A stretch of 25,904 nucleotides of DNA from Actinomycetota bacterium (GCA_028718045.1 JAQUMQ010000001.1:1-25904); one strand, 5' to 3'; shown: positions 359 through 25,904, counted from the first letter of the stretch. Translations and numbers: made by a program. The notes: a model not told the origin generated them from the letters alone.

Positions 359-2320
<1,962 letters not shown>

Positions 2321-2325
2321 TTTAT

Positions 2326-2355
2326 AAATTCCGGCATAATCATTTCCGGATTTTT
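2326..2355 (+). terminator. Weak hairpin or possible terminator between gyrB and gyrA
   Basis: AAATTCCGG ... CCGGATTTT (8 of 9 pairs, 11-nt loop) ending in a T run. Confidence 0.3.
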
Positions 2356-2454
2356 AAGATATATGCACGATATATTTTTTACGATTTTTTACGAATGTAA
2401 ATTTTTTAAACAGTAAATAAATTTTATACAAAATTTTTAATTATAAGGAAATGA

Positions 2455-4887
2455 ATGGTTTTTGAAATAAGAGGAAAAATTAAAAATGTCGGCATAGAGT
2501 CCGAAATGCAGGACAGCTATTTAAGCTATGCCATGAGTGTTATTGTAGGTCGCGCACTTCCAGACGTAAGAGATGGGCTCAAACCTGTTCACCGAAGAAT
2601 CTTGTATGCTATGAATGATATGGGGATGAGGCACAATACTCCTTTCAAAAAAAGTGCCCGTATCGTTGGCGAGGTTTTGGGAAAGTATCATCCTCACGGA
2701 GATACCGCAGTTTATGATTCCATGGTTAGGATGGCTCAGGATTTTTCAATCAGATATCTTTTAGTTGATGGTCATGGAAATTTCGGTTCGATAGACGGTG
2801 ACAGTCCTGCAGCCATGAGGTATACGGAAGCAAGGCTTTCTGAGTTTGCCGAAGAATTGCTTACCGATATGGATAAGGAAACCGTTGATTTTATCGATAA
2901 CTTCGACAGCTCATTAAAGGAACCGGTAATTCTTCCCGCAAAAATTCCGAATCTGCTCGTAAACGGTTCTTCAGGTATTGCGGTTGGAATGGCAACGAAT
3001 GTCCCGCCGCATAACTTGGGAGAGGTAATCGATGGAGTCATAGCTTATATAGACAATAAAGATATATCGATATCGGACCTGCTTAAAAAAGTCAAGGGAC
3101 CGGATTTTCCTACTGGCGGCAAAATTATGGGTATGAAAGGTATAGTAAATGCTTATAATACGGGAAGGGGTATACTTACCGTCAGAGGCAGCGTTCACAT
3201 TGAACAAACCAAAAAGCAAAGACAGCAGATAATAATAAGCGAAATACCTTATCAAGTTAATAAAACGACACTCATAGAAAAAATAGTAGAAAATGTTAAG
3301 GAAAAAAGGATCGAAGGTATCAGTGACTTAAGAGACGAATCCGATAAAAGCGGAATGAGGATAGTCATAGAAGTCAAAAGAGAAGCCGACCCCAATATAG
3401 TAATTAATCAGCTTTATAAACATTCACAGCTTGAATCAACTTTTGGGGTAATCATGCTTGCCTTGGTTAATGGTATTCCAAGGACCTTGAATTTGAAAGA
3501 AATGATTTGTGAATTCGTAAAGCATAGATATGATGTCGTCGTAAAAAGGACAAAATATGAGTTGAGGAAAGCCGAAGAAAGAGCTCACATACTGGAAGGC
3601 TTGCTTATCGCTCTTGATAATCTTGATGCCGTAATAAAACTCATTAGGTCTTCAAAAGATGTTCCTACCGCGAAAGAAGGTCTTGTGTCCAAGTTCAATC
3701 TGACTGAAATCCAGGCACAAGCGATACTCGAAATGAGGCTGCAAAGGCTTACTGCTCTGGAACGCGACAAGATAAAACTTGAGCACAAAGAGCTTACGGA
3801 GAAGATAAAGTATCTTAAGGAACTACTTGAAAACGATGATTTGCTTTACGGTGTTATAAAAGATGAACTAAAGGAAATAAAGAAGAAATATGCGGACGAG
3901 AGAAGATCAGAAATAACGGCTGAAGTATCTGATCTTGAAATAGAAGATCTTATTGCAGAGGAAGAAAACGTAATTTCTATCACACATAGTGGTTATATAA
4001 AAAGGCTGCCTGTCACGACATACAGGAAACAAAACAGAGGAGGCCGCGGAGTAACGGGTATGAATCTTAAGGAAGAAGACTTCGTCGAGCATTTATTCAT
4101 ATCTTCAACCCATAATTATATAATGTTCTTCTCGAATTTTGGCAAGGTATACAGGCTTAAGGTATTTGAAATACCCGAAGGAAGCAAAGCTTCGAAGGGT
4201 AAGGCAATCGTGAATATACTGCCTTTTAAACAAAATGAAAAGGTAATGGCTGTAATTGCGGTTAAAGAATATGGCGAAGATGATTATTTGATAATGGCAA
4301 CAAAGAAAGGTTACGTCAAAAAGACTTCGATAAAAGAATATGATACTTCAAGAAAAGAAGGAATTGCGGCAATTACCTTAAAGGAAAAAGACGAGCTTAT
4401 CGAAGTTAAAAAAACAAGCGGAAAAGACGATGTTATGCTTATTACCAAAAATGGGCAATGCATTAGATTTAGCGAAACCGATTGCAGACATATGGGCAGG
4501 ACCGCTCAAGGCGTTATAGGAATGAGGCTCAAAAAGGGCGATGAAGTTTTGGCAATGGCTGTAGTCAGAGATATTAACAGTGACTTGTTTGTCCTAACCG
4601 ATAACGGATATGGCAAAAGAACTCCCGTTTCCGATTTTACGAGATTTCATAGAGGTGGCAAGGGTGTAAGAGCCATAATAATTACAGAGAAAAAAGGCAA
4701 GATATCCGGTGCGGGCATTTTAAGAGAGGATTATGATGTAATGATAATGTCGATAAACGGCATTCTCATACGGATCAATGCAAGCAACATATCAAAATAC
4801 GGAAGAGCAAGTCAGGGAGTGAAATTAATGAATCTTGAAGAAGGTGATAAAGTTGCTTCGGCTGCATTTGTGGCTCCGGAAGACTAG
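2455..4887 (+). CDS. gyrA: DNA gyrase subunit A
   Basis: Motifs [19 protein letters not shown] and catalytic AAMRYTE. The GyrA-box QNRGGRG distinguishes it from ParC. C-terminal beta-pinwheel repeats present. Confidence 0.98.
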
Positions 4888-6303: not shown

Positions 6304-6380
6304 GGGCGTATAGCTCAGTTGGTTAGAGCGCGTCCCTGATAAGGACGAGGTCTCTGGTTCGAGTCCAGATACGCCCACCA
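6304..6380 (+). tRNA. tRNA-Ile (GAT)
   Basis: 77-nt cloverleaf: acceptor GGGCGTA/TACGCCC, anticodon stem CGTCC/GGACG with loop CTGATAA, T-arm GGTTCGAGTCC, encoded CCA. Confidence 0.98.
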
Positions 6381-6451: not shown

Positions 6452-6527
6452 GGGGGTGTAGCTCAGCTGGGAGAGCACCTGCCTTGCAAGCAGGGGGTCA
6501 GCGGTTCGATCCCGCTCATCTCCACCA
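6452..6527 (+). tRNA. tRNA-Ala (TGC)
   Basis: 76-nt cloverleaf: acceptor GGGGGTG/CATCTCC with the G3:U70 alanine identity pair, anticodon stem CCTGC/GCAGG with loop CTTGCAA, encoded CCA. Confidence 0.98.
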
Positions 6528-6641: not shown

Positions 6642-6996
6642 ATCCTAACAGCACAGAGCTCTAACTCTTAACCTGTAGTTTTCAAAGTTCCGGAATTTTT
6701 CTAAATAACGGGACATTTCGCTCTGACAATAGGTTCCAAGTTCCGTCACCAAGTTTTTTACGACAATAATGTCAACTGATTTTATGATATTTAATAATAT
6801 GATTATTGGTTTTTGGATAATTATTTTTACTTCTTATTGCTGAAAATAATCATTGATTTTATTCGTTTTGTAACCAGTTGATTCTTTTTAAAATTTAAAA
6901 AATTAATAAAATTTTTGGTAAAATAATTATTCAGGATTAAAAAAATTTTATACAACGATACTTTTAAAAAAGAAAAGGTTGCTTAAGGAGAAAATT

Positions 6997-7923
6997 ATGG
7001 AATATAAAGATAAATTCAAATATGGCGGATGGGAAAACTGCATAAGGCTTAGCAACGGTAAAATTGAATTGGTTGCCACAACCGATGTAGGTCCCAGAAT
7101 AATAAGATTGGGAAAAGTTAACGGCAAGAACCTTTTTAAAGAATTTAAAAATCAGCTTGGTTCAAACGGCGGTGGCGAATGGAAATCATATGGCGGAATA
7201 AGGTTATGGCACGCACCCGAATCATCTCCAAGGACTTACTGCCCTGATAATTTTCCTGTTGGATATTTTTGGGACGGCAAAACATTGAAATTAAGCCAAA
7301 AAACAGAAAAGACAACCGGCATTAAAAAAGAAATGGAAGTCAGCATGGATGAAAATAATAATTATGTTAAGATAGTTTACAGGCTTATTAATAAAAATTT
7401 ATGGGATATCGAAATTTCACCATGGGCGATTACAGTAATGGCTGAGAATTCCTTGGCGATTGTCCCTCAAGAGCCGTATCGATGCGGAAGGGAAAATCTT
7501 TTACCTGTCAGACCTTTATCGTTATGGGGTTATACAAAAATGCAGGATTCAAGGTGGACATGGGGTGACCGATACATTATTCTTAAGCAGGATCCCAAAT
7601 CAAGATCAAACCAGAAAATAGGCGTTTTAAATTCTGCCGGATGGATGGCAGGATATAACGAGGGGGAAGTATTGATAAAAAGATATGACTTTAATTCCGA
7701 ATTTTATTACCCTGATTTCAATTGCAACACCGAGGTATATACTGACCAGGATATTCTGGAACTTGAAACATTAGGACCCCTTACCATACTGGAACCGGAA
7801 ACCGAAATAGAGCATATAGAGCATTTATTTTATTTTAAAGCATTTATCGAAAATACAGAAAAATCCATAGATGATAATTTGATTCCGCTTATAAAAGAAA
7901 CTGACAAATTTATAAACTTTTAA
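6997..7923 (+). CDS. Conserved hypothetical protein, DUF4380-like (possibly galactose-mutarotase-like beta-sandwich)
   Basis: Motifs GWENCIRLSNG, DVGPRII, GG.RLWHAPE, RTY.PDN, ELETLGPL. ATG 6997 follows AAGGAG (track start TTG 6979). Fold call is from memory of the family. Confidence 0.6.
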   Translation: MEYKDKFKYGGWENCIRLSNGKIELVATTDVGPRIIRLGKVNGKNLFKEFKNQLGSNGGGEWKSYGGIRLWHAPESSPRTYCPDNFPVGYFWDGKTLKLSQKTEKTTGIKKEMEVSMDENNNYVKIVYRLINKNLWDIEISPWAITVMAENSLAIVPQEPYRCGRENLLPVRPLSLWGYTKMQDSRWTWGDRYIILKQDPKSRSNQKIGVLNSAGWMAGYNEGEVLIKRYDFNSEFYYPDFNCNTEVYTDQDILELETLGPLTILEPETEIEHIEHLFYFKAFIENTEKSIDDNLIPLIKETDKFINF

Positions 7924-7985
7924 AAGAGTATCTGTGCAAATCAAAGCAAATCCAGGTTGTAATTAATTAATCCGGAGATATCTGC

Positions 7986-9044
7986 ATGATATCAAAAAAA
8001 ATAACGACAGGTGAGACGATGCCAAAAGAAGTGGCACAAAAAGAAATGACGCCAAAAGAAATAATATTAAATATCCTCAACAAGAAAAAAGTTCCCAGAT
8101 GCGGTGTGGCAAATCCCGTATCTTCGATAACCGTCGAGCAGATGAAAATAATGAATTCCTTTTTTCCCGAAGCTCATTATGATGCCGGGAAAATGTATGA
8201 ACTTTCAAGAGCCAATTATGAAATACTTGGCTTTGATGCGATAATGCCTGTTTTCAGCGTCGTAATCGAATCTCATGCTCTCGGCTGCACAATAGATTGG
8301 GGCAGGCCCGATATGATGCCTCAAATTTTAGGAAAGCTATGGAAGAATTATGATGATATCAAAATCAATAAAGATTTTTTATCAAACAATGCCGCTAAAG
8401 CTGTCCTTGAATGCATATCTTTGCTTAAAAACAATTATCCGGATGTTGCCATAATAGGAAAGGTTTTTGGACCATGGACACTTGGTTATGATCTTTTCGG
8501 CGTAGAGGATTTTCTTATAAAAACCATAACAAATCCAAATGAAGTGAAAAGCATTTTAAATAAGCTTAGCAAGGTAACTGTCAGGTTTGCCAATGCTCAA
8601 ATCGAAGCAGGAGCAGATGTAATTACCGTTGCCGACCATGCAACAAAAGATCTATGCAGCCCTCTTGCATATAGGGATTTTTTGATTCCCATCCATTCAA
8701 TGCTGGTTAAAAAAATAAAAGCTCCGATCATTCTTCATATATGTGGCGATATCGTAGACCGGATAGAATATATATGCCAGACAAATGTTTCTTCATTTCA
8801 TTTTGAATCAAAAGTCGATGCATGCCAGGCGGTTAAGATAAGCAACGGCAGGATCAAACTTATAGGCAATATCAATAACTCGTCGACTCTTCTTTTTAAA
8901 ACCCCCAAAGATGTTAAAAAAGAAGTGGAATATGCAATAAAATGCGGAGTTGACATTATTGGTCCCGAATGCGCGGTACCTTTAACCACACCTCTGGAAA
9001 ATTTAAAAGAAATCACATATGTCACAAAAAATCATAAACATTGA
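7986..9044 (+). CDS. MtaA/CmuA-family methyltransferase (uroporphyrinogen decarboxylase superfamily, MT2 type)
   Basis: Motifs GKVFGPWTL, AQIEAGAD, ILHICG (His/Cys at 8736/8742), GNIN and IIGPECAVP (Cys at 8970). GGAG SD 8 nt upstream; alternative starts at 8019 and 8046. Confidence 0.85.
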   Translation: MISKKITTGETMPKEVAQKEMTPKEIILNILNKKKVPRCGVANPVSSITVEQMKIMNSFFPEAHYDAGKMYELSRANYEILGFDAIMPVFSVVIESHALGCTIDWGRPDMMPQILGKLWKNYDDIKINKDFLSNNAAKAVLECISLLKNNYPDVAIIGKVFGPWTLGYDLFGVEDFLIKTITNPNEVKSILNKLSKVTVRFANAQIEAGADVITVADHATKDLCSPLAYRDFLIPIHSMLVKKIKAPIILHICGDIVDRIEYICQTNVSSFHFESKVDACQAVKISNGRIKLIGNINNSSTLLFKTPKDVKKEVEYAIKCGVDIIGPECAVPLTTPLENLKEITYVTKNHKH

Positions 9045-9255: not shown

Positions 9256-10119
9256 GTGGAAAAATTAGTTTTTTTTAATACAAAAGGCGGAACCGGCAAA
9301 ACAACTTTTTGCTTTAACTATGGTTGTTATCTCGCAACTGTAAAAAAGAAAAAAGTTCTAATGATGGATTTTGATCCTCAGGCAAATCTGGCTTTTTCTT
9401 TTGGAAAAGTTCCGGCAAAGGGAACATCGTGCTGCCTCGATAACCTTATTTTAAACTACCTTAAGGGAGAAAAGAAAAATTTTGATGATTACCTGGTTTC
9501 TATTAAAGACGGCCTCTTTTTGCTGCCGTGTTCAAACAATATCTCCCTTATAGAGGAATACCTTACAAATCATATAATAAACAAAGAACAGACCAAAACG
9601 GATAGCGGCGAAACAATTAAAAATCCTGCCATAGAGAGAAATAATATTTTATTAAACATTTTAGCCGAATCAATCAAATCCGATGATTTCGACTACATTT
9701 TAATTGACAGCCAACCAAATTTTTCGCTACTTTCGACAACGGGTATTGTTTTTACCGGAAATATCATAGTGGTTATGAAAGCCGAACCTTACTCAATGAT
9801 TGATATTGAATATCTAAAAAAGATAATAAATAATCTTAACAAGAAATTTTCGGCGGATATAAAGATCACGGGAGTTATTATAAATGCTTATGAAGGAAGA
9901 AAAAAAGTTGCAGTTTCGACGGTAAAAGAAATAGAGGATAAATATAGCAATAAAATAAAGATATTTAATCAAAAAATCAAATATCTTTCTCAATACCAAA
10001 ATTCCATTGCTTTAAATAAAGAGGCTGTTTTTGATGTATATCCTAAATCGGAAGCTTCTAAAAACATATTAAGTCTTTTTAGCGAGATCGACAGTGAGAT
10101 AATTTTTAGCAGCCAGTGA
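9256..10119 (+). CDS. ParA/Soj-family ATPase (orphan, no N-terminal HTH)
   Basis: Deviant Walker A KGGTGKTT, DFDPQAN, Walker B YILIDSQP. GTG start; TATAAT at 9199-9204 upstream. Confidence 0.9.
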   Translation: MEKLVFFNTKGGTGKTTFCFNYGCYLATVKKKKVLMMDFDPQANLAFSFGKVPAKGTSCCLDNLILNYLKGEKKNFDDYLVSIKDGLFLLPCSNNISLIEEYLTNHIINKEQTKTDSGETIKNPAIERNNILLNILAESIKSDDFDYILIDSQPNFSLLSTTGIVFTGNIIVVMKAEPYSMIDIEYLKKIINNLNKKFSADIKITGVIINAYEGRKKVAVSTVKEIEDKYSNKIKIFNQKIKYLSQYQNSIALNKEAVFDVYPKSEASKNILSLFSEIDSEIIFSSQ

Positions 10120-10171
10120 TTTTTAATCGTTTGTTGTTTTTATATTATTAGTTTGTTTTTAAGGAGATGTC

Positions 10172-10567
10172 ATGACAAATTCCGATTTTTATTCTAACGG
10201 TGATTTGAAAGATAAACCGGCAGATCAGAAAAATGGCGCACAGAAAACTTTGCTTACTATCAAAGGCAGCAGCGCAAAGGTTGAAGGTAAGTTAAAAATT
10301 TCGAATTCGGTTGAAGTAGACTGCGAAGTCGTGGGTGAGCTTGATGTCGGCGGCGAATTGGTAATCCAAAGATCAGGCAACGTTACTGCCAATATCAAAA
10401 CGAATAATGTTGTCATAAAAGGTGAATATAAAGGAAATATGGAAGCTGCCGGCAATGTCCAAATTATGGAAACAGGCAAAACCAGCGGTAATATAAAAAC
10501 GGATTCGCTCATAATCGAAAAAGGCGGTATATTCTCAGGAAATGTAGAAAGAATAACGGAAAACTGA
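10172..10567 (+). CDS. Bactofilin (polymer-forming cytoskeletal protein)
   Basis: Beta-helix periodicity (VEGKLKIS..VEVDCEVVGEL..LVIQRSGNVTANI..VVIKGEYKGNM..GNIKTDSLIIEKGGIFSGNV); AAGGAG SD upstream. Confidence 0.9.
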   Translation: MTNSDFYSNGDLKDKPADQKNGAQKTLLTIKGSSAKVEGKLKISNSVEVDCEVVGELDVGGELVIQRSGNVTANIKTNNVVIKGEYKGNMEAAGNVQIMETGKTSGNIKTDSLIIEKGGIFSGNVERITEN

Positions 10568-10767: not shown

Positions 10768-11244
10768 ATGACAAAAATATGGCTGGAGTTTTTTCTAGGT
10801 AAAATAGGAAGATATTTAATCGATTTTTTTGCAAAATATTATATGTGGATAATTCCATTTGTTTTTGCTTACGGTATCTTCATGAGTCTTGCGTCATATA
10901 ATTTAAGAAGAATTGAAAAAAAGATAAATTACGAAATCATCAATCAGACAAAGCATCTTTTAAGGAGAAATCCAAAAGCTAATTTCACAAGCATAGTCGA
11001 AAATATAGTAATTAACTGGGAAGATATAACCAAGCTTTATTCATTCTTTCCATATGTTGCAAATGAATTTGATTTGTGGGTTACGCAAGCAAGTCCTGCT
11101 AAGGTGCGTACTCTCATAATGGGAGATAAGAACAGAATAAGGCTCGTGCTTGAACGCAAAAACATTTTTTTTGCGGAAGATAAAAGAAATGCGAGAAAAA
11201 ATTTATATCTCGATTATATAAACAAGATATTTAGACAAAGATAA
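10768..11244 (+). CDS. Hypothetical protein with an N-terminal hydrophobic (membrane-anchor) segment
   Basis: 158-aa ORF filling the gap; hydrophobic YYMWIIPFVFAYGIFMSLA. TTGACA at 10718-10723 upstream; no SD seen. Confidence 0.7.
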   Translation: MTKIWLEFFLGKIGRYLIDFFAKYYMWIIPFVFAYGIFMSLASYNLRRIEKKINYEIINQTKHLLRRNPKANFTSIVENIVINWEDITKLYSFFPYVANEFDLWVTQASPAKVRTLIMGDKNRIRLVLERKNIFFAEDKRNARKNLYLDYINKIFRQR

Positions 11245-11260
11245 CATTTTAAAAATTGTT

Positions 11261-12562
11261 TTAAGAAAACAGTTTAAGAATCGGCTTCATTATCTGAGTC
11301 AAAATCCAATATATGATATTTGATCCCATATCCAGGCTTGAAGCTTTGTTATAACCTTCAATAATCTGAGCGGGTTCTTTTGCCAGAAAATTCGTTATAA
11401 AAGTAATCATATCTGTCGTAATCAGCAATACTACCGGTATTATTATCAATGCGGATATGAAACTTCTAAAGATGTCGCCACGGGACGGACATACCGCCCA
11501 AACAAGTATCAAAGGAATCGTTATAAGACCTGCACTCGGAAGTATCTTATTGCCCGGCAGGATAGATGCTATATATACTGTTAAAGGTATCATTATCGTA
11601 GTGAGTCCTATGACTGAGGCATTGCCGGCAACTACAATCGAATTGAGCCCAATATATATTTCTCTTTTCGTAATCTTGCTGTTTATAAATGTTCTAATGT
11701 CATCGATTATCGGTATCACGCCTTTGTAAAGAAGAGTAACCGAGCGTGGCATCAGGATCGTAATGACACACATGTATAAACCGGACAAAAAAGCATATCC
11801 CAGGTTTGGCCAGAAATTAAGGGTAAAATTCCTATATTTTGTTATCAAACCTATTATGAATCCAAGAATGAACCCAATGACCATGGGTTCTCCCGCAACA
11901 CCTAATTTATACTGTATTTCCTCGTAAAATATATTCAGTCTTTTTATGAAAGGAATTTTATTTAAAATAAAATTTACGAAATTCGAGACAGGAGCCCATA
12001 CTATTGTTTGGGGTTGCGGATTGGAAATTCCTTTGATTCCATAGTAACTCTCAAGATAAGGACTGTAAATATCTGCCAATACGAAAGAAATTGTTGCAAT
12101 AACGCATGAAAATAAAATTCCCAGCCACATTATTCCTGTTACTTCGTAAATAAAAATACCGGAAAACATAAAAAGCCATAAATTCCATATATCGATATTA
12201 ATTGTTCTGGTAAGTCTCAGCAATAGCATTAATATGTTAAGAGCTATCAATATGAATGCCAGCTGTAAAACAAAAGGATTGTATATGTCCATTTTTTGAG
12301 CAACGAGCCAGCCGATATCTATTGCTTGAAATTTTTTATTGGTAATCGCAAGGATGGTATTGATTACCGGGTTAAAAAAATTGATGTAAAAACCAAGAAG
12401 AAACGAAAAAGTAATCAATCCTAAATAGACATATACGGAATTTATCAGTAAAGTCAGCTTATTTCTTGTTGTTATAAGTCCTATCAAAAATAAAATTATC
12501 GGTATAAGGCCGGCAGGGCCAATTTCAGCAAAAATTTTTATTGTTTTATATAAAATTTCCAT
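11261..12562 (-). CDS. PTS galactitol-family IIC-like permease (GatC homolog), divergent
   Basis: 433-aa polytopic membrane protein with GatC-like IDIGW, NIDIWN, GEPMVIG, LMPR, IYIGL, LPGNKILP and GDIFRS. Confidence 0.85.
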   Translation of the reverse strand: MEILYKTIKIFAEIGPAGLIPIILFLIGLITTRNKLTLLINSVYVYLGLITFSFLLGFYINFFNPVINTILAITNKKFQAIDIGWLVAQKMDIYNPFVLQLAFILIALNILMLLLRLTRTINIDIWNLWLFMFSGIFIYEVTGIMWLGILFSCVIATISFVLADIYSPYLESYYGIKGISNPQPQTIVWAPVSNFVNFILNKIPFIKRLNIFYEEIQYKLGVAGEPMVIGFILGFIIGLITKYRNFTLNFWPNLGYAFLSGLYMCVITILMPRSVTLLYKGVIPIIDDIRTFINSKITKREIYIGLNSIVVAGNASVIGLTTIMIPLTVYIASILPGNKILPSAGLITIPLILVWAVCPSRGDIFRSFISALIIIPVVLLITTDMITFITNFLAKEPAQIIEGYNKASSLDMGSNIIYWILTQIMKPILKLFS

Positions 12563-12731
12563 ATATACAGATATATCTCTGTGTTTTTTTTAAATCTTTC
12601 GATAAAAAGCCGAATAAAGTAAAAATGCTTTTTACAATATATCAAAAATAATAATATTATTTAACATAAGTGGTAAATTTTATTATTGTCTAAAAATTAT
12701 TAACAAGGGTGAAGCTGTCGTTTATTTGTCG

Positions 12732-12784
12732 ATAACTTCGTATGTGATTCCGATACGAAGACTTATTCGAGATAATGAAGTTAT
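12732..12784. other. loxP-like palindromic element
   Basis: ATAACTTCGTAT (12732-12743), 9 nt, ATACGAAG (12753-12760), AC, TTAT; a second GAAGTTAT at 12777-12784. The sequence is directly seen; function unknown. Confidence 0.4.
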
Positions 12785-12794
12785 GCGTATATTA

Positions 12795-12859
12795 ATTAAA
12801 TTGCATGGATGCAATTTAATGCATTTAACTTTGACTTTTTGTTTTTGCAGTAATAAAAT
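12795..12859 (+). promoter_or_regulatory. 26-bp palindromic operator-like site plus sigma70 promoter for the E2 gene
   Basis: ATTAAATTGCAT-GG-ATGCAATTTAAT (12795-12820), then TTGACT (12831-12836), 17-nt spacer, TAAAAT (12854-12859). Confidence 0.6.
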
Positions 12860-13017
12860 ATATGGAATTTTTAATTATGATATTAAAATAATTACCGGTG
12901 AGTAAACAATAGTTTTATGATAAAATTTGATTTTGTATTCATTTTGTTATCAACTTTTTGATTTTTTATTCTGGTTTAAATTATTACATTATTCTTTATT
13001 TTCGAGAGGAGATCATA

Positions 13018-14406
13018 ATGTATGAAGTCTTAATGCCCAAGATGGGTGAAACGATGGAGAAAGGTACCATTGAAAAATGGAGGAAAAAAGAAGGAGACAA
13101 GATTGAAAAAGGAGATATACTATACGATCTTGCAACAGACAAGGTATCTCTTGAAGTAGAATCATTTAACTCGGGCTATTTGAGAAAGATATTAAGAAAT
13201 GAGGGGGAAGAAGTTCCGATAATGGAAGTGATTGCCTATATCGGCGAAAAAGATGAGCCCATACCTTTAGAAAATCAGGCTTCAAAATCAAAACCTGCGG
13301 AAGACCAACTTAAGGCAAAAGAAAAACCGGAACGTGAAAATAAGGATAAGGTTCAAGCCCAACCTTTTAAAGCTGAATCAGAAAGGATATCCATTTCTCC
13401 TGTGGCAAAAAATCTTGCCGAAGCTAACAAGATCGATATTTCAAAAGTTAAAGGAACAGGTCCGGAAGATAGAATAATCAGAAAAGACATAGAAGCTTTG
13501 ATCTTATCCAAAAAAGAAAAAAGTGAAAGGATTTTCATATCTCCTTTGGCAAGAAAGACAGCGACTGATCTTGGGATAGACTACAAAACGGAAAACATAA
13601 CCGGTTCGGGTCCCTCGGGAAGAATAGTGCATTCCGATATTTTGTCATTTTCAAAAGCCTCCGAAGCATTAAAAGAACAGAAAGCGCCTATCGTTGCGGA
13701 GGGTAAAGAAATTAAGATTTTATCTTCGGCACCGCTTAAAGGCGCACGAAAGGTTATCGCCAATAAAATGATTCAGTCAAAAAAAGAAATACCTCATATT
13801 ATCTGTAATTGTGTTTGCGATGTCAGCAGTCTCATATCGTTAAGAACCAGATTAAAAGATAAGCTTGAAAAAAATTATGGAATAAAAATTACTTATACCG
13901 ATTTTATAATTAAAATTACTTCGGTTGCATTGCACGAATTCAGATCGATAAATTCATCATTTCAAAATGACAATCATATTATTTATGAAGACATCAACAT
14001 AGGTATGGCTACCGCAGTAAATAATAGCCTCATTGTTCCTACGATTTATAATGCAGATACACTTGGTATTCTTGAAATTGCAAAAAAAAGAACCGAGCTT
14101 GTCCAAAAGGGGAGAGACGGAAAACTATCCCTTGATGAGGTAACGAACGCAACATTTACAATTTCCAACTTGGGAATGTATGGTGTAAGATCATTTACCG
14201 CAATAATCAATCCTCCTCAAGGCGCAATTATGATGGTTTCCGAAATGTATGAATCTCCTGTTGCCGTTGACGGGAAAGTCGAGATAAGAACGCTCATGGA
14301 AATAGGAGTTGCGGTAGATCATAGGATTATTGACGGAGCGCTTGCGGCGCAATTCCTGCGTAGAGTCAAGGAACTTGTGGAAAATCCCGAGATGTTGATA
14401 TTATAG
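13018..14406 (+). CDS. Dihydrolipoamide acyltransferase (E2) of a 2-oxoacid or acetoin dehydrogenase complex
   Basis: Lipoyl domain (TDKV, Lys at 13141), two peripheral subunit-binding domains, catalytic TFTISNLG, NPPQ and DHRIIDG. ATG 13018 follows GAGAGGAG (track start 12958). Confidence 0.95.
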   Translation: MYEVLMPKMGETMEKGTIEKWRKKEGDKIEKGDILYDLATDKVSLEVESFNSGYLRKILRNEGEEVPIMEVIAYIGEKDEPIPLENQASKSKPAEDQLKAKEKPERENKDKVQAQPFKAESERISISPVAKNLAEANKIDISKVKGTGPEDRIIRKDIEALILSKKEKSERIFISPLARKTATDLGIDYKTENITGSGPSGRIVHSDILSFSKASEALKEQKAPIVAEGKEIKILSSAPLKGARKVIANKMIQSKKEIPHIICNCVCDVSSLISLRTRLKDKLEKNYGIKITYTDFIIKITSVALHEFRSINSSFQNDNHIIYEDINIGMATAVNNSLIVPTIYNADTLGILEIAKKRTELVQKGRDGKLSLDEVTNATFTISNLGMYGVRSFTAIINPPQGAIMMVSEMYESPVAVDGKVEIRTLMEIGVAVDHRIIDGALAAQFLRRVKELVENPEMLIL

Positions 14407-14506
14407 CTTTTGCCAATTGTTTTTTTATTATTTTTTTGAATGGGAAATTTTTAAAAAATGAGGTTTTTATTTATACAATAATATTTGTTTTAATTAACGC
14501 TGCCTT

Positions 14507-14515
14507 TGGTATAAT
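14507..14515 (+). promoter_or_regulatory. Extended -10 promoter element upstream of the zinc-ribbon gene
   Basis: TGGTATAAT, an exact TGnTATAAT match. Confidence 0.4.
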
Positions 14516-14631
14516 TGCTTTTGAAACGATATTGATTTAATATCTTTTGTTTAATGTTTTTTATTTTGACATATAAAAACAGTAAATATGATTTCTATAT
14601 ATTATAACTGATAATATTTTTTTTATGTAAA

Positions 14632-14961
14632 ATGCTAAAAGATGAAGAAACAAAAATTGTTCTTTTTTGCATAAATTGCAATTCGGACACGGAGCATACC
14701 GTTAGTTATATAGGCGAATATTTAAAAAGTATACAGTGCAACAAATGCTTAAAAAAAATTGAAATAGACAGAAGGCATTTAAGAACAGTTTTTGCTGAAG
14801 ATTTTATAGATAGAATTCTTTCGAAACCTCATAGAATGTCCCGTGATTTTAAAGAAGCTATGGCTTATCTTGTTCCGTTTTTTCCAAAAAGGCTATTTAA
14901 GGAACCTAAAAAGGTAATAAAGGAAATAATTGAAGTGTTGAGGAAAAAAAACGGGGAATAA
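14632..14961 (+). CDS. Small zinc-ribbon hypothetical protein
   Basis: CINC...CNKC (two CxxC) followed by a helical tail (RILSKPHRM). It resembles, from memory only, small uncharacterised Firmicutes proteins annotated 'bh protein'. Confidence 0.7.
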   Translation: MLKDEETKIVLFCINCNSDTEHTVSYIGEYLKSIQCNKCLKKIEIDRRHLRTVFAEDFIDRILSKPHRMSRDFKEAMAYLVPFFPKRLFKEPKKVIKEIIEVLRKKNGE

Positions 14962-15123
14962 ATCGACAATTATATATCAAGATTCTGGTTTGATAGTTTG
15001 TTCGATTATTTTTTTATTATTGTCAGCGTAAAGTTTTAATTATTTTTTTTTGCTCTTTTTGGATATTTTTATTTGGATGAGCACTTTTAATATTTTATTT
15101 TTTGTCTTTGGAGGGTAAATCTC

Positions 15124-16518
15124 ATGGCGGAAGTAAAAAAAGCAGATGTAGCGATTCTTGGTGCAGGACCTGGTGGTTATGTTGCGGCAATTAGGGCTAA
15201 AAAGCTCGGATTAGACGTGATTCTGGTCGAAAAAGAGAACTTGGGCGGGGTCTGCCTTAACTGGGGGTGCATACCGACAAAAGCACTTGCACATACAGTT
15301 GAAGTAATCGAGACGGTAAAAAAATCGCAAGAGCTTGGCATCAATATTTCGGCAGCGGAAACGGACTTTGGAAAAGTAATGGAACGGAAAGATAAGATTG
15401 TAAATATTCAAAGAGCAGGGCTTGAATATAATTTTAAAAAGAATGGGATTGAAATAGTCAGAGGGACAGGCAAGCTGGCTTCCAAAGATAAGATTATCGT
15501 AAAAGGAAATGCCGGAACGGAAGTCGAAATAAATGCCGAAAATATCATTCTGTCGACAGGCTCTCATGCATCAAGTGTTCCCCCTTTCATTCTTGACAAT
15601 GAAGGAATTTTAGATAACGTAGGTATTTTATCGCTTAAAGAACTTCCGAAATCCATGCTTGTAGTTGGCGGAGGTGTAATAGGTTGTGAATTTTCAAGCA
15701 TATTTTCTGCCTTGGGTACAAAAATTACAATTGTTGAAATCATGCCGAGAATTTTGCTGAATGAAGATGAAGAAGTTTCCGAACTTATAAAAAAAGTTTT
15801 TGTAAAAAAAGGTATAAATATCTATACAAATGTTACGGTAAAAGAAGTCAAGAAAGTAAATAATCAATATATGTGCCTGTTAAGTAACGGAGAATCGGCA
15901 ACGTTTGATAAGATTCTTGTTTCGGTCGGAAGAAAACCCAACACGAAAGACATCGGTTTGGAAGATATAGGAGTTAAGCTTGACGGCAAAGGCTTTATCG
16001 CTGTGGATAAATATCTAAAGACAAGTATCGATAATATATTTGCAATAGGTGATGCGGTAGGCGGTTATCAGCTTGCTCACGTTGCTTCATCGGAAGGGCT
16101 TGTTGCGGTTGATAATATTAAAGGAAAAAATAAAGAAATGAATTATGGTGTAGTACCATGGGCTATTTTTACGATTCCGGAAGTAGGAACTGTAGGTCTT
16201 AACAAAAAACAAGCAGAAGAAAAGGGTTATGATGTATGTACGGGAATATTTCCGTTTAAAAACAGCGGCAAAGCTTATGTCGTGCAGGAAACCGAAGGAT
16301 TTGTCAAAATATTCACCGATTCTTCTACAAAAGAAATTCTTGGTTCGACGATAGTTGGCCCCAGAGCATCCGATCTTATACATGAAATAGCGGTAGCAAT
16401 GCATGGTGAGCTTACGGCTGATTATGTTGCAAATGCAATTCATGCTCATCCAACCCTTTCGGAAGCAGTGATGGAAGCAGCCGAGGATTGCTTTGGACTT
16501 GCAACGCACAAGGTTTAA
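15124..16518 (+). CDS. lpdA: Dihydrolipoamide dehydrogenase (E3)
   Basis: FAD motif GAGPGGY, redox disulfide GGVCLNWGCIP, NAD motif GGGVIGCE, C-terminal HAHPTLSE; GGAGG SD upstream. Confidence 0.95.
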   Translation: MAEVKKADVAILGAGPGGYVAAIRAKKLGLDVILVEKENLGGVCLNWGCIPTKALAHTVEVIETVKKSQELGINISAAETDFGKVMERKDKIVNIQRAGLEYNFKKNGIEIVRGTGKLASKDKIIVKGNAGTEVEINAENIILSTGSHASSVPPFILDNEGILDNVGILSLKELPKSMLVVGGGVIGCEFSSIFSALGTKITIVEIMPRILLNEDEEVSELIKKVFVKKGINIYTNVTVKEVKKVNNQYMCLLSNGESATFDKILVSVGRKPNTKDIGLEDIGVKLDGKGFIAVDKYLKTSIDNIFAIGDAVGGYQLAHVASSEGLVAVDNIKGKNKEMNYGVVPWAIFTIPEVGTVGLNKKQAEEKGYDVCTGIFPFKNSGKAYVVQETEGFVKIFTDSSTKEILGSTIVGPRASDLIHEIAVAMHGELTADYVANAIHAHPTLSEAVMEAAEDCFGLATHKV

Positions 16519-16661
16519 AAAATTCTAAAAATTGATTTTTATATAGGCATTTTATATAAATATCCTCATGCAAAAAAATGTTATAAAAACGTAAACTGAC
16601 GGCATGATAGTATCTTAAATGCTATTTGCCGTAATATTGATTAATCTTTTTAGCCGAATGG

Positions 16662-17468
16662 ATGGTTTTAATAATGCATAAATACAGATTGCTGGTTACT
16701 GATGTCGACGGTACCTTGCTTGATCATAATTCCAAATTAACGGAATTAAATAAGAAAGCTCTTACTGATTGTATTAAAAATGGAATAGATGTAACTATTG
16801 CGACAGGTAAGACCATAGACTCAATAATGTTCATAATCAGGGAACTTTGCTTAACGCTTCCGCAGATAACCATGAACGGAGCTGTCATTGTTACTCCCGA
16901 AGGGAAGATATTGGATACCACTGGATTTCCATTGCAATTATATCTGGAATTTATTAGGGATGTCAGGTCGAAAGGGTACGAACCTACAGTTGCAACCGTT
17001 GACGGTAAGATATATTGTAAAGAATACTCCCAGAATATGAAACACATGTTAGATGTTGGAGAAAAGATTACAAAGGTTGATGATATAGAATCGGATTTTT
17101 TCATTAAAAATACGGTAAGCATATCTGTTCCGATGCTTGCAACAGATCCGATGGATAATTATATAAGGAAAAAATTCGGTAAGGTGTTACAGGTTGTACG
17201 TTCGGGAGAATATTTTTTCGATATCCTTAATCTTAAAGCTTCAAAAGGAAACGCTTTAAAAAAGCTCATCAAAGAACTTGGGATAAAAAAAGAAGAAGTA
17301 GTTGCTTTTGGCGACAGTCATAACGATATAAGTCTTTTTAAAGAATCGGGTTGCAAGATAGCGGTTAAAAATTCTTTTCCGGAACTTATCGAAATTGCAG
17401 ACATCGTTGCTGATGAAAATTATAAATCCGGGCTGGGCAAAGCCATTTACGAGCATATATTATTTTAA
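16662..17468 (+). CDS. Cof-type HAD-IIB hydrolase (probable sugar or small-molecule phosphatase)
   Basis: Motif I DVDGTL, motif II ATGK, ITMNGA, motif III/IV KGNAL and GDSHND. ATG 16674 is an alternative start. Confidence 0.9.
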   Translation: MVLIMHKYRLLVTDVDGTLLDHNSKLTELNKKALTDCIKNGIDVTIATGKTIDSIMFIIRELCLTLPQITMNGAVIVTPEGKILDTTGFPLQLYLEFIRDVRSKGYEPTVATVDGKIYCKEYSQNMKHMLDVGEKITKVDDIESDFFIKNTVSISVPMLATDPMDNYIRKKFGKVLQVVRSGEYFFDILNLKASKGNALKKLIKELGIKKEEVVAFGDSHNDISLFKESGCKIAVKNSFPELIEIADIVADENYKSGLGKAIYEHILF

Positions 17469-17881: not shown

Positions 17882-17908
17882 ATACGGAATACCGTATTTT
17901 GTATACAA
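17882..17908. promoter_or_regulatory. Putative GntR operator(s) just upstream of the gntR SD
   Basis: ATACGG-AATA-CCGTAT (17882-17897) and perfect TTGTATACAA (17899-17908). The latter fits the GntR GT-Nx-AC pattern. Confidence 0.5.
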
Positions 17909-24493: not shown

Positions 24494-25904
24494 ATGGAGA
24501 AATTTTTTAAAAGTAATTTTAGGTTCAATATATTGAAAAGTGATGAAATCAAAGAAATTTTTAATGCGAGCATGGATATATTAGAAAAAACAGGAGTAAA
24601 AGTATTTAGTACAGAAGCAGTAGAAATATTTAAAAAGAATGGTTGTATTATAAAAGATGACAATATAGTGCATATTCCAAATTCATTGGTAAAAAGTACT
24701 TTAAATAGTATACCTGAAAGAATAACTATATATAATAGAATTAGCGAACCGGCAATGATTATGGAAGATGGGATAATTCATTATGGAACTGGTTCAGATT
24801 GCCCAAATTTTATAGATCCTTATACTCAAGAAAGAAGACCCTCCACTAGTCAAGATGTCATAAATTCTGCGATAGTATCCGATCATCTTAATGAGATAGA
24901 TTTTCATATGTCTTTAAGCAGAGCAAGCGAAAAATCACCCGAGAATCATTTAATTCATCAATATGCGTTAATGTTAAAAAATACTATAAAACCATTAATT
25001 GTAACTGCAAAAAATAAAAATAATTTGGAGAAAATCTATAGTATTGCAGCATTGATAAGCGGGAGTAAAGAAGATTTTAAATTAAAACCAAATTTTATTT
25101 TGTATCTTGAACCAAGTTCTCCTCTTATGCATTCTAAGGATGTTTTAGAAAAATTAATTTTTTCTGTTGAAAATGATATTCCATTGATCTATGCTCCATG
25201 TCCTATGGCTGGTGCAACATCTCCAGTAACAAAAGCTGGTACTCTGGTCATTGCTCTTTGTGATTCACTTTCTGGAATAGTTTTGACTCAATTAATCAAA
25301 CCTGGCGCTCAGGTGTTTATGGGAGGAGTTATTTCAAATTTGGATATGTCAACATTAATAATGCCTGGTGCTTCACCTGAATTTTTATCTATGTCAGTAG
25401 CGCTGACTGAGATATCCAGAAATTTAAAAATTCCCATGTTTTCTACAGCAGGATGTACAGATGCAAAAACAGTAGACGAACAAGCAGCGATAGAAGTAAC
25501 TGATTCAATAATATTTGCGGGTCTTTCTGGTGCAAATATTATACATGACCTGGGATTTTTGCAATCATCCTTAACTGGTTGCCTTGAACTAGTAGTAATG
25601 TCCAACGAGATAATTAGAAAAATGAAAAAAGTATTCGAGGGGATAAAAGTAAATGAGGCAACTCTTATGAGGGATGTAATTAATAAAGTAGGTCCTGGTG
25701 GTAATTATCTACTTGAAGATTCAACCGTAAGATTATTTAAAAAAGAATTCTTTTTCCCAAAATTATTCAATAGAGATAATTATGAAAATTGGTTAAAAAA
25801 AGGAAGCAAACCTTTAAAAGATAGACTTAATGAAGAAGTATTGTTTATTTTAGAAAATCACAAAACAGAGAAGATTGAAAGTATAGTCAATAATAAAATT
25901 AATA
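24494..25904 (+). CDS. MttB-superfamily (trimethylamine methyltransferase family) corrinoid methyltransferase, non-pyrrolysine; partial, runs off right edge, not in ORF track
   Basis: SD AGGAG, then ATG 24494 and 470 codons with no stop. Motifs ILEKTGV, YGTGSD, EPSSPL, MAGATSPVT.AGTL, QLIKPG, DM..GASPE, AGCTDAK..DEQA.IE, GANIIHDLG and VGPGG. Confidence 0.9.
   Translation, partial: MEKFFKSNFRFNILKSDEIKEIFNASMDILEKTGVKVFSTEAVEIFKKNGCIIKDDNIVHIPNSLVKSTLNSIPERITIYNRISEPAMIMEDGIIHYGTGSDCPNFIDPYTQERRPSTSQDVINSAIVSDHLNEIDFHMSLSRASEKSPENHLIHQYALMLKNTIKPLIVTAKNKNNLEKIYSIAALISGSKEDFKLKPNFILYLEPSSPLMHSKDVLEKLIFSVENDIPLIYAPCPMAGATSPVTKAGTLVIALCDSLSGIVLTQLIKPGAQVFMGGVISNLDMSTLIMPGASPEFLSMSVALTEISRNLKIPMFSTAGCTDAKTVDEQAAIEVTDSIIFAGLSGANIIHDLGFLQSSLTGCLELVVMSNEIIRKMKKVFEGIKVNEATLMRDVINKVGPGGNYLLEDSTVRLFKKEFFFPKLFNRDNYENWLKKGSKPLKDRLNEEVLFILENHKTEKIESIVNNKIN

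Follow-up and report, generated by a model that had tools for sequence, protein, structure and literature searches.

E2 and E3 genes without an adjacent E1 and an orphan galactitol-family permease in a Humimicrobiia genome: probable traces of gene loss in one genus

The contig JAQUMQ010000001.1 (1-25904; assembly GCA_028718045.1, Actinomycetota bacterium), analysed at its full length of 25,904 nucleotides and referred to here as the window, carries genes for the dihydrolipoamide acyltransferase (E2) and dihydrolipoyl dehydrogenase (E3) of a lipoamide-dependent dehydrogenase complex, and raises the question of why they stand there without the thiamine pyrophosphate (TPP)-dependent component E1 (E1α and E1β, together E1αβ), beside a galactitol (Gat)-family permease (EIIC) of the phosphotransferase system (PTS) that has no IIA or IIB partner. 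An initial annotation had read these genes, two genes for hypothetical proteins (hyp158 and hyp109, of 158 and 109 aa) and a Cof-type phosphatase gene as one six-gene module, representing either an undescribed lipoate-dependent route or a fragmented remnant. Comparison with related genomes pointed to the latter. The seemingly incomplete module probably reflects the lineage-specific trimming of an operon of a known kind, next to an orphaned PTS permease and with E1 genes elsewhere in the genome, and would not by itself constitute a new pathway. The missing E1 and the missing IIA and IIB would then both reflect stepwise gene loss in one genus.

The source is a metagenome-assembled genome (MAG) of 1.89 Mb in 341 contigs, 88% complete with 2.4% contamination, of which the window is one whole 25.9-kb contig. 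It belongs to the low-GC actinobacterial class Humimicrobiia (UBA1414-class), as judged by the nearest named relative of the 109-aa protein, a homologue in Candidatus Humimicrobium oleiphilum UBA1414 with 88% identity.

Gene content and transcription units of the region

The region holds the following features, in order along the window.

10768-11244, plus strand: hyp158, a 158-aa hypothetical protein; no family match above cut-off, a weak ECF-S match below cut-off
11261-12562, minus strand: EIIC-GAT, orphan Gat-family PTS permease; PF03611, 144.7 bits
12563-13017, no strand: AT-rich divergent intergenic spacer between EIIC and E2; site of (SorC/DUF3786)-E1α-E1β in relatives
13018-14406, plus strand: E2 dihydrolipoamide acyltransferase, 462 aa from ATG; PF00364, PF02817 twice, PF00198
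14632-14961, plus strand: hyp109 ("bh protein"), 109 aa; CxxC-x19-CxxC, an Elf1-like C4 zinc ribbon and a basic two-helix C-terminal part
15124-16518, plus strand: E3 dihydrolipoyl dehydrogenase; TIGR01350, 528 bits
16662-17468, plus strand: Cof-type HAD-IIB phosphatase; TIGR00099, 157.9 bits; PF08282
17882-17897, plus strand: terminator-like hairpin 3' of Cof; consensus match only

Open reading frame (ORF) calling recovered all six genes in place, so the gene list of the initial annotation stood, and the single module that it had drawn from them did not. The hyp158 and EIIC genes are convergent, EIIC and E2 are divergent, and only E2, hyp109, E3 and Cof lie on the same strand; the six genes form at least three transcription units rather than one co-oriented module, and only E2-hyp109-E3-Cof could share one transcript. 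The hairpin at 17882-17897 was the sole plus-strand terminator-like site between E2 and the GntR gene; terminator-like sites were no commoner here than in shuffled sequence, and the promoter and terminator scan was uninformative in such AT-rich DNA. The region may be best described as three unrelated or loosely related units, namely hyp158, the orphan EIIC, and E2-bh-E3-Cof.

The claim that E2 and E3 stand in the window without E1 or a lipoate ligase was confirmed, as profile searches detected neither E1 (PF00676) nor an LplA/B catalytic domain anywhere on the contig. No remnants of E1, DUF3786 or the ligase were detected in the spacers of the cluster by tblastn (E<=10), and no Rfam regulatory RNA was found in the cluster, the EIIC/E2 spacer included.

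The mechanically called E2 ORF (12958-14406) begins at a TTG at 12958; a GAGAGGAG ribosome-binding site upstream and the alignment of orthologues suggest that the true start is likely the ATG at 13018. The protein contains one lipoyl domain (PF00364), two peripheral-subunit-binding domains (PSBDs; PF02817 twice) and the catalytic domain (PF00198, 263 bits), and was assigned to E2 on these together with the TDKVS lipoyl site, two PSBD motifs and the catalytic motif DHRIIDG; for the lipoyl lysine and the catalytic motif, the check covered the window copy only. Against TIGR01349 it scored 368.9 bits, under the cut-off of 445. Two tandem PSBDs were seen in the E2s of the window's genus and of several other genera (e.g., genomes G019, G008 and G015), and single-PSBD E2s in genera g3, g5 and most of g8; genomes with two PSBDs tended toward more E1α matches, kin genomes among them not being independent.

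The E3 was assigned from its score against TIGR01350 (528.3 bits, over the equivalog cut-off of 408.8), its CLNWGC redox disulfide and its HPTLSE motif. It was the only lipoamide dehydrogenase found in the source genome, where tblastn detected no second Lpd. GcvH is present in that genome, and the E3 may additionally reoxidise this H protein of the glycine-cleavage system. LipA was not found in the 88%-complete genome; its contig C248 ends in a partial LplA/B catalytic domain. The phosphatase, assigned to Cof from its DVDGT motif and its score over the TIGR00099 cut-off (157.9 versus 137 bits), also follows E3 in G011, G012, G019 and G018 and in the same-genus species G003 and G005.

Gene loss at the locus in the window's genus

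The hyp109 gene was present in 22 of 24 sampled genomes of the same family and in two sister families. In the usual family order, hyp158 and EIIC face each other and are followed by (DUF3786), E1α, E1β, E2, hyp109, a gene for an LplA/B-type ligase, E3 and Cof; E1α-E1β lies directly upstream of E2, and the ligase gene sits on the opposite strand between hyp109 and E3. Genus g12 has a fuller locus, in which PfkB, two zinc-dependent alcohol dehydrogenases (Zn-ADHs), a SorC-family regulator, E1α, E1β, E2 and hyp109 lie on one strand, divergent from EIIA-EIIC and with the ligase and E3 beyond hyp109. The sister and outgroup families f2 and f3 carry SorC-E1α-E1β-E2-(E3)-hyp109, and by parsimony SorC-E1αβ-E2-hyp109 would be the ancestral arrangement. 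The window's E2-bh-E3-Cof would therefore be the trimmed core of an ancestral (SorC)-E1α-E1β-E2-bh-(LplA/B)-E3-Cof operon, from which E1αβ and the ligase were probably deleted in the window's genus while a working E2/E3 core was kept. The "fragmented remnant" of the initial annotation was borne out by these relatives.

The genus comprises six species, and the layout without upstream E1αβ and without the ligase was also found in four of the others; the fifth, represented by a short contig, has E2-hyp109-E3 in the same order, likewise without the ligase. In two of these other species a different E1αβ follows E3. The window's genus thus appears to have lost E1αβ, the ligase and PTS IIA and EI, and to have kept EIIC, E2, the zinc-ribbon gene hyp109, E3 and Cof. 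A chimeric contig, or E1 genes dropped by misassembly, could produce a similar picture, as the MAG is fragmented and slightly contaminated, and the E1β and E2 on another of its contigs, C72, are closer to those of genus g14 than to those of their own genus. However, the hyp158-EIIC-E2-bh-E3 order without an upstream E1 recurs in the independent MAGs of the four other species, which argues against an assembly or binning artefact, and reading of the sequence showed the contig to be unbroken across both junctions, with ordinary AT-rich spacers. An artefact of this kind is extremely improbable.

The E2 at this site appears to be the inherited one. In the tree, it grouped with the E2s of the same genus (support 100/100) inside the clade of the family's operon E2s (100/99), which indicates that it is probably the orthologue of the operon E2, the second E2 of the genome (on C72) being a paralogue. 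E2 lies immediately upstream of hyp109 in 23 of 28 informative loci of the family, and the remaining five are hyp109-E3 loci after loss of E2 at the site; in genus g14 and part of g3, nothing but hyp109-E3 is left beside EIIC. Such independent reductions within the family are what would be expected if the window held a decaying, non-functional leftover, in which E2 and bh lost their role with E1 and E3 alone was kept for glycine cleavage, and the presence of GcvH means that an E3 alone would be useful. Against this, the four other species of the genus with a fully visible E2 all have it intact (61-80% identity), and it nests with E2s of functional operons; bh has a ratio of nonsynonymous to synonymous substitutions (dN/dS) of ca. 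0.045 within the genus, which indicates strong purifying selection and makes it more conserved there than E2 or E3; and the genome holds orphan E1αβ pairs that need an E2. A decaying leftover is therefore quite improbable.

The permease has a parallel history. It matched TIGR00827 with 274 bits, under the cut-off of 542, and is intact across the family at 47-82% identity, with one possible frameshift. The claim of the initial annotation that it stands without IIA and IIB extended to the whole 88%-complete genome, where PF00359 (IIA), PF02302 (IIB) and PF05524 (EI) were not found; HPr was not searched, and a functional galactitol-family PTS, taken as EIIC with IIA, IIB, HPr and EI, was not recovered there. 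Three further genomes of the genus likewise gave no EI or IIA, the search for IIB having been confined to the source genome. Among the 17 genera of the family, EI was present in only two (g12 and g17), and exactly there an EIIA lies directly upstream of the EIIC orthologue. Because EI and an adjacent EIIA survive together only in these two genera, the orphan EIIC would be what remains of a Gat-type PTS that was once complete, and a clear natural example of a permease outlasting the other components of its PTS; its retention is compatible with a PTS-independent carrier role. A separate observation concerned the EIIA_2 domain: in G269, a 612-aa amino-acid permease fused to a C-terminal PTS EIIA_2 domain (L163:13124-14962) adjoins the hyp158 gene, and similar ORFs of 611-631 aa carry the sole EIIA_2 match in several genera otherwise lacking EI.

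The hyp158 gene followed EIIC rather than the dehydrogenase genes. Its homologues were found in 28 of 28 sampled genomes of the family and in none of the 372 genomes sampled from the phylum's other families; at 29 of 30 loci it faced EIIC tail to tail, regardless of what lay on its other flank. Its dN/dS was 0.09-0.15, and its N-terminus appeared hydrophobic by eye. Searches of Pfam and NCBIfam, also at E<=10, returned nothing usable for either hyp158 or hyp109. We treat hyp158 as a family-specific (Humimicrobiaceae-like) neighbour that lies outside the dehydrogenase unit, with nothing linking it to E2/E3.

E1 genes on other contigs and the bh family

If the E2/E3 core is working, its E1 partners should be encoded elsewhere, as the initial annotation had proposed, and three E1αβ pairs were indeed found in the source genome, all on other contigs. 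On C72 the order is FGGY kinase-E1α-E1β-transaldolase-like gene-E2. On C4 the pair lies among genes for a sugar-binding protein, a short-chain dehydrogenase/reductase (SDR), MBL, DUF4432, a split transketolase and a racemase, without an E2. On C276 it follows a class-V aminotransferase gene, and the contig stops inside E1β, so no adjacent E2 is visible; no join of C276 to an E2-bearing contig was found by end overlap. The first 58 residues of the C276 aminotransferase fragment are 100% identical to the end of C38, and these two contigs probably join, no exact end overlap having been found. All E1α proteins scored 355-372 bits against TIGR03182, under its cut-off of 393.85, and are generic PdhA/AcoA-like; the C72 E1α was sister to the family's operon E1α clade.

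Across the family, 13 of 17 genera share a conserved combination of E1α-E1β with a 397-aa transaldolase/FSA-family gene, in most cases with no E2 behind it; an E2 follows this module in the source genome and genus g14, and an FGGY kinase gene precedes it in the source genome. In 40 genomes of the family, profile searches gave ca. 160 E1α against ca. 55 E2 matches, or about 3:1 (8 versus 1 in G019, 14 versus 3 in G024), these tallies being of matches rather than copy numbers. We infer from these counts and from gene order that the two-PSBD E2 and the single E3 of the window may serve E1αβ pairs encoded elsewhere in trans, the C72 pair having its own paralogous E2. Such an excess of E1αβ over E2/E3 suggests a shared acyltransferase core in this family and perhaps also E1s with new substrates drawn from sugar metabolism. 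A further lipoyl-type protein was noted on contig C261 (locus 496-3042). This stand-alone domain of 79 aa shares 61% identity with the lipoyl domain of the E2 in the window; small EutN/PduN-like ORFs and then an RnfC/PduS-like ORF lie downstream, both recognised by eye, and the locus may be of the microcompartment type and encode a lipoyl carrier of its own.

The gene between E2 and E3 encodes a member of a widespread family. Close homologues of the 109-aa protein are named "bh protein" by NCBI (named matches of 70-90% identity) and sometimes "Elf1" by JGI, and its relatives include, besides that of Ca. Humimicrobium oleiphilum, proteins of Actinomycetota MAGs and of Ca. Calidifonticultor. An exhaustive phmmer search gave 120 clusters at 50% identity, most members being ca. 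100-125 aa long. Other bh members are placed in Bacillota by NCBI and Atlas records: the family includes a Fusibacter protein named "bh protein", and the nearest Atlas clusters to hyp109 are labelled "Bh protein" and are commonest in Bacillota. A literature search for "bh protein" returned nothing relevant. The alignment showed four invariant cysteines, with H22, Y26, R61, K65, P66, P85, R87 and P92 nearly invariant; the near-invariant residues form TKPxR and LPxR-x3-KPxR motifs, and hyp109 carries the features that define the family. Its AlphaFold2 (AF2) model, with a pLDDT of 84.6, consists of a four-stranded zinc ribbon and two long helices, and the C-terminal half is basic (pI 10.2).

Similarity to other families was slight. 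A profile search of the PDB with bh gave weak matches to Elf1 chains (E 0.008-0.08), and residues 1-50 aligned structurally to Elf1 with Z 4.1; a Foldseek search of the PDB and a wide VIA-align comparison with the AF2 model returned nothing above Z 4.2 or E 0.28. Pfam gave hyp109 no match to PF05129 (Elf1), for which duplicated family members had matches below threshold, and neither Pfam nor NCBIfam gave it a match to PF10437 (LplB-like, the C-terminal domain of lipoate ligases), although the two may be functionally analogous. A search of longer proteins for bh-E1 fusions gave none, a weak negative, and the long proteins in the search with bh representatives were LRR/NACHT or repeat artefacts. 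In one protein of 287 aa (P0158), a bh-like zinc ribbon at the N-terminus is fused to a GTPase domain of the SRP54 type. An in-frame TAG considered in bh homologues of family f4 was merely the stop codon.

Genomic context tied bh to lipoamide-dependent systems well beyond the family. In other families of the phylum, with GC contents of 55-74%, 11 of 14 loci of distant homologues (25-35% identity) had E1α-E1β-E2 no more than a few kb away, and 10 of the 14 had SorC, bh often lying directly after E2; further neighbours were HMGL-like, PTS EI and PPDK genes. Two unpublished genomes (G144 and G048) enter the tally as two rows, and no claim is based on them. A metagenome scan with the single bh protein gave no matches. 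Among low-GC metagenome contigs, two loci show bh overlapping the 5' end of an LplA-type gene, which has HD and Cof genes behind it, in an arrangement divergent from E1α-E1β-SorC; at another locus bh is convergent with an E1α-E1β-E2-E3-SorC operon; and at four it closes an operon, EIIA-EIIC-IIB-(Zn-ADH-SDR-SDR)-SorC-bh, that begins just after E3. In all lineages seen, bh was near at least one gene of the lipoamide system, often adjoining SorC. It is thus a strongly conserved family without a Pfam or NCBIfam model, genomically tied to E1αβ-E2, SorC, LplA and E3 both in several families of Actinomycetota and on metagenome contigs of low GC. The initial annotation had suggested that both hypothetical proteins were accessory subunits; this was supported for hyp109, given its co-localisation in distant lineages, and was not supported for hyp158, which is restricted to the family, lies on the strand opposite to EIIC and is linked to EIIC. 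The bh protein would be a conserved accessory of the lipoamide system, most likely a small protein-binding or regulatory factor. As a guess, an adaptor or assembly factor of the complex would come narrowly before a nucleic-acid-binding regulator, with a lipoylation helper well behind both.

The same neighbourhoods bear on the other option of the initial annotation, that the six genes act together in an undescribed lipoate-dependent route for a polyol or sugar phosphate. Here, EIIC would import the substrate, a TPP-dependent E1 encoded elsewhere would cleave a sugar-derived alpha-hydroxyketone, and E2 and E3 would make the acyl-CoA, with Cof and the two hypothetical proteins as accessories. A Gat-family PTS adjoins the E1αβ-E2-bh-E3 block throughout the family; in g12 the block is also accompanied by EIIA, PfkB, the two Zn-ADHs and SorC, and an unrelated low-GC lineage again unites E3, EIIA-EIIC-IIB, Zn-ADH, two SDRs, SorC and bh. 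Cof-type phosphatases lie near bh in three lineages, the E1αβ pairs elsewhere sit among sugar genes on C72 and C4 and with the transaldolase-like gene in most genera, and every E1α falls under the pyruvate dehydrogenase (PDH) equivalog cut-offs. The polyol link proposed initially therefore receives moderate support, in that Gat-type polyol uptake may be functionally tied to the dehydrogenase block. On the other hand, the IIA, kinase, dehydrogenase, SorC, E1 and ligase genes of the g12 locus are missing at the window locus, and IIA, EI, the kinase, the dehydrogenase, SorC and E1 are gone from it or were not found in the genome; the window alone therefore cannot encode the route, and the claim of an active route from these six genes was not supported. 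A Gat PTS with Zn-ADH and PfkB also makes up the classical galactitol/tagatose route to triose phosphates, in which case the linked complex would be an ordinary pyruvate dehydrogenase. In addition, hyp158 is convergent with EIIC and family-restricted, and the units lie on different strands. As evidence against its proposal, the initial annotation had named homologues of the hypothetical proteins that do not co-occur with PTS-Gat or E2/E3 genes, together with an E2 and E3 that group with canonical pyruvate dehydrogenase, their E1 lying elsewhere. Half of this was observed; E2 and the E1s scored as generic PdhA/AcoA-type proteins under the equivalog cut-offs, so that the substrate may be pyruvate, acetoin or another compound. 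Overall, a six-gene route of this kind is unlikely.

Lineage-specific reduction with E1 supplied from elsewhere remains our preferred reading, and several points weigh against it. The evidence that orphan E1αβ pairs use the window E2 in trans consists of counts and gene order, the E1α and E2 counts are of matches and not of copies, and the synteny counts, drawn in part from kin genomes that are not independent, overstate the number of independent events. As the genome is 88% complete and in 341 contigs, the assembly could have missed another E2, E1 or PTS gene, and an E2 could follow on C276, which ends inside E1β. Since the operon E1α clade has the C72 E1α as its sister, the "loss" may in part be a relocation. 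Finally, bh has no informative structural or family match, and therefore its role is a guess.

A broader model, which we offer as doubtful, would extend trans use to the whole of Humimicrobiaceae. In this "hub-and-spoke" arrangement, one E2/E3 core, its PSBD duplicated and kept despite deletion of its own E1, would serve many AcoAB-like E1αβ modules (up to ca. 14 matches per genome) in sugar and polyol clusters with transaldolase-like genes, transketolase, FGGY and PfkB kinases, Gat PTS and SorC. Some of these E1s would cleave sugar-derived alpha-hydroxyketones rather than pyruvate, and bh would be a widely conserved subunit or regulator of SorC-linked complexes.

The remainder of the contig yielded observations of a different kind. 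Its 5' end carries gyrB-gyrA and then a DUF4870/DUF3566 pair, and two tRNA genes (6304-6377 and 6452-6524) lie between the DUF3566 and DUF4380 genes. The DUF4380 gene and a gene for an MtaA/CmuA-family methylcobamide methyltransferase (TIGR01463, over cut-off) occupy 6979-9044, near replication-origin genes. A ParA-like ATPase gene followed by a bactofilin gene (9256-10567) is also found in the same-genus G001 and is absent at this position in other genera. At 25454-25553, the window matches Rfam PYLIS_3, the pyrrolysine (Pyl) insertion element of mttB, with 42.2 bits against a gathering threshold of 38 bits; the match lies inside an MttB-family ORF (24494-25903) with no in-frame stop in its 470 aa. 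Either this is a non-Pyl methyltransferase of the MttB superfamily with a chance or relict PYLIS_3 match, or the TAG lies past the contig end. Together, the MtaA/CmuA-family and MttB genes suggest methyl-group metabolism.

Comparison with known systems

Compared with the Elf1/ELOF1 zinc ribbon (PF05129), bh has a C4 ribbon of similar size and the weak profile and structural (Z 4.1) similarity described above. Unlike Elf1, it is bacterial, ends in a conserved basic part of two helices that bears K-P-x-R motifs, and is encoded in a metabolic operon; all its scores fall under thresholds. For the speculative cleavage of sugars, the quinocarcin pathway offers an analogy only: in QncN/QncL/QncM, a TPP-dependent E1 moves a two-carbon unit from a ketose phosphate onto lipoyl-E2. 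That system differs from the present one, which has no carrier protein or nonribosomal peptide synthetase context.

The permease resembles those of gatYZABCDR of E. coli and of the Listeria pentitol PTS in its Gat-family EIIC, and g12 and the low-GC lineage further share with them EIIA, Zn-ADH-type polyol-phosphate dehydrogenases and PfkB, a IIB having been identified in the low-GC lineage and not in g12. The window differs in keeping EIIC only, no aldolase was seen in the block, and the block adjoins a lipoamide-dependent dehydrogenase operon. The acoABCL clusters of B. subtilis, Pelobacter carbinolicus and Clostridium magnum are alike in their AcoA/AcoB-like E1αβ, full-length E2 and E3. Butanediol dehydrogenases are linked to aco clusters, and Zn-ADH or SDR genes are linked in some of the relatives studied here. 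Unlike aco, the present loci have a SorC-family regulator rather than the sigma-54 regulator AcoR, are linked to Gat PTS, PfkB and Cof, and are without AcoX.

The genomes of UBA1414 have been annotated with "PdhABCD" (PMC7325909). Compared with pdhABCD operons such as that of Bacillus subtilis, the window site lacks E1αβ, so the complete operon is found in the relatives and not in the window; a zinc-ribbon gene, with the opposite-strand LplA/B ligase gene in relatives, separates E2 from E3; the window E2 has two PSBDs; and E1α and E2 score under the PDH cut-offs, E1α matches outnumbering E2 matches in the family by about three to one. The resemblance to pdhABCD lies in the heterotetramer-type E1αβ of the relatives, in their gene order of E1α-E1β-E2 with E3 downstream, in the lipoyl, PSBD and catalytic domains of E2, and in an E3 of the TIGR01350 type.

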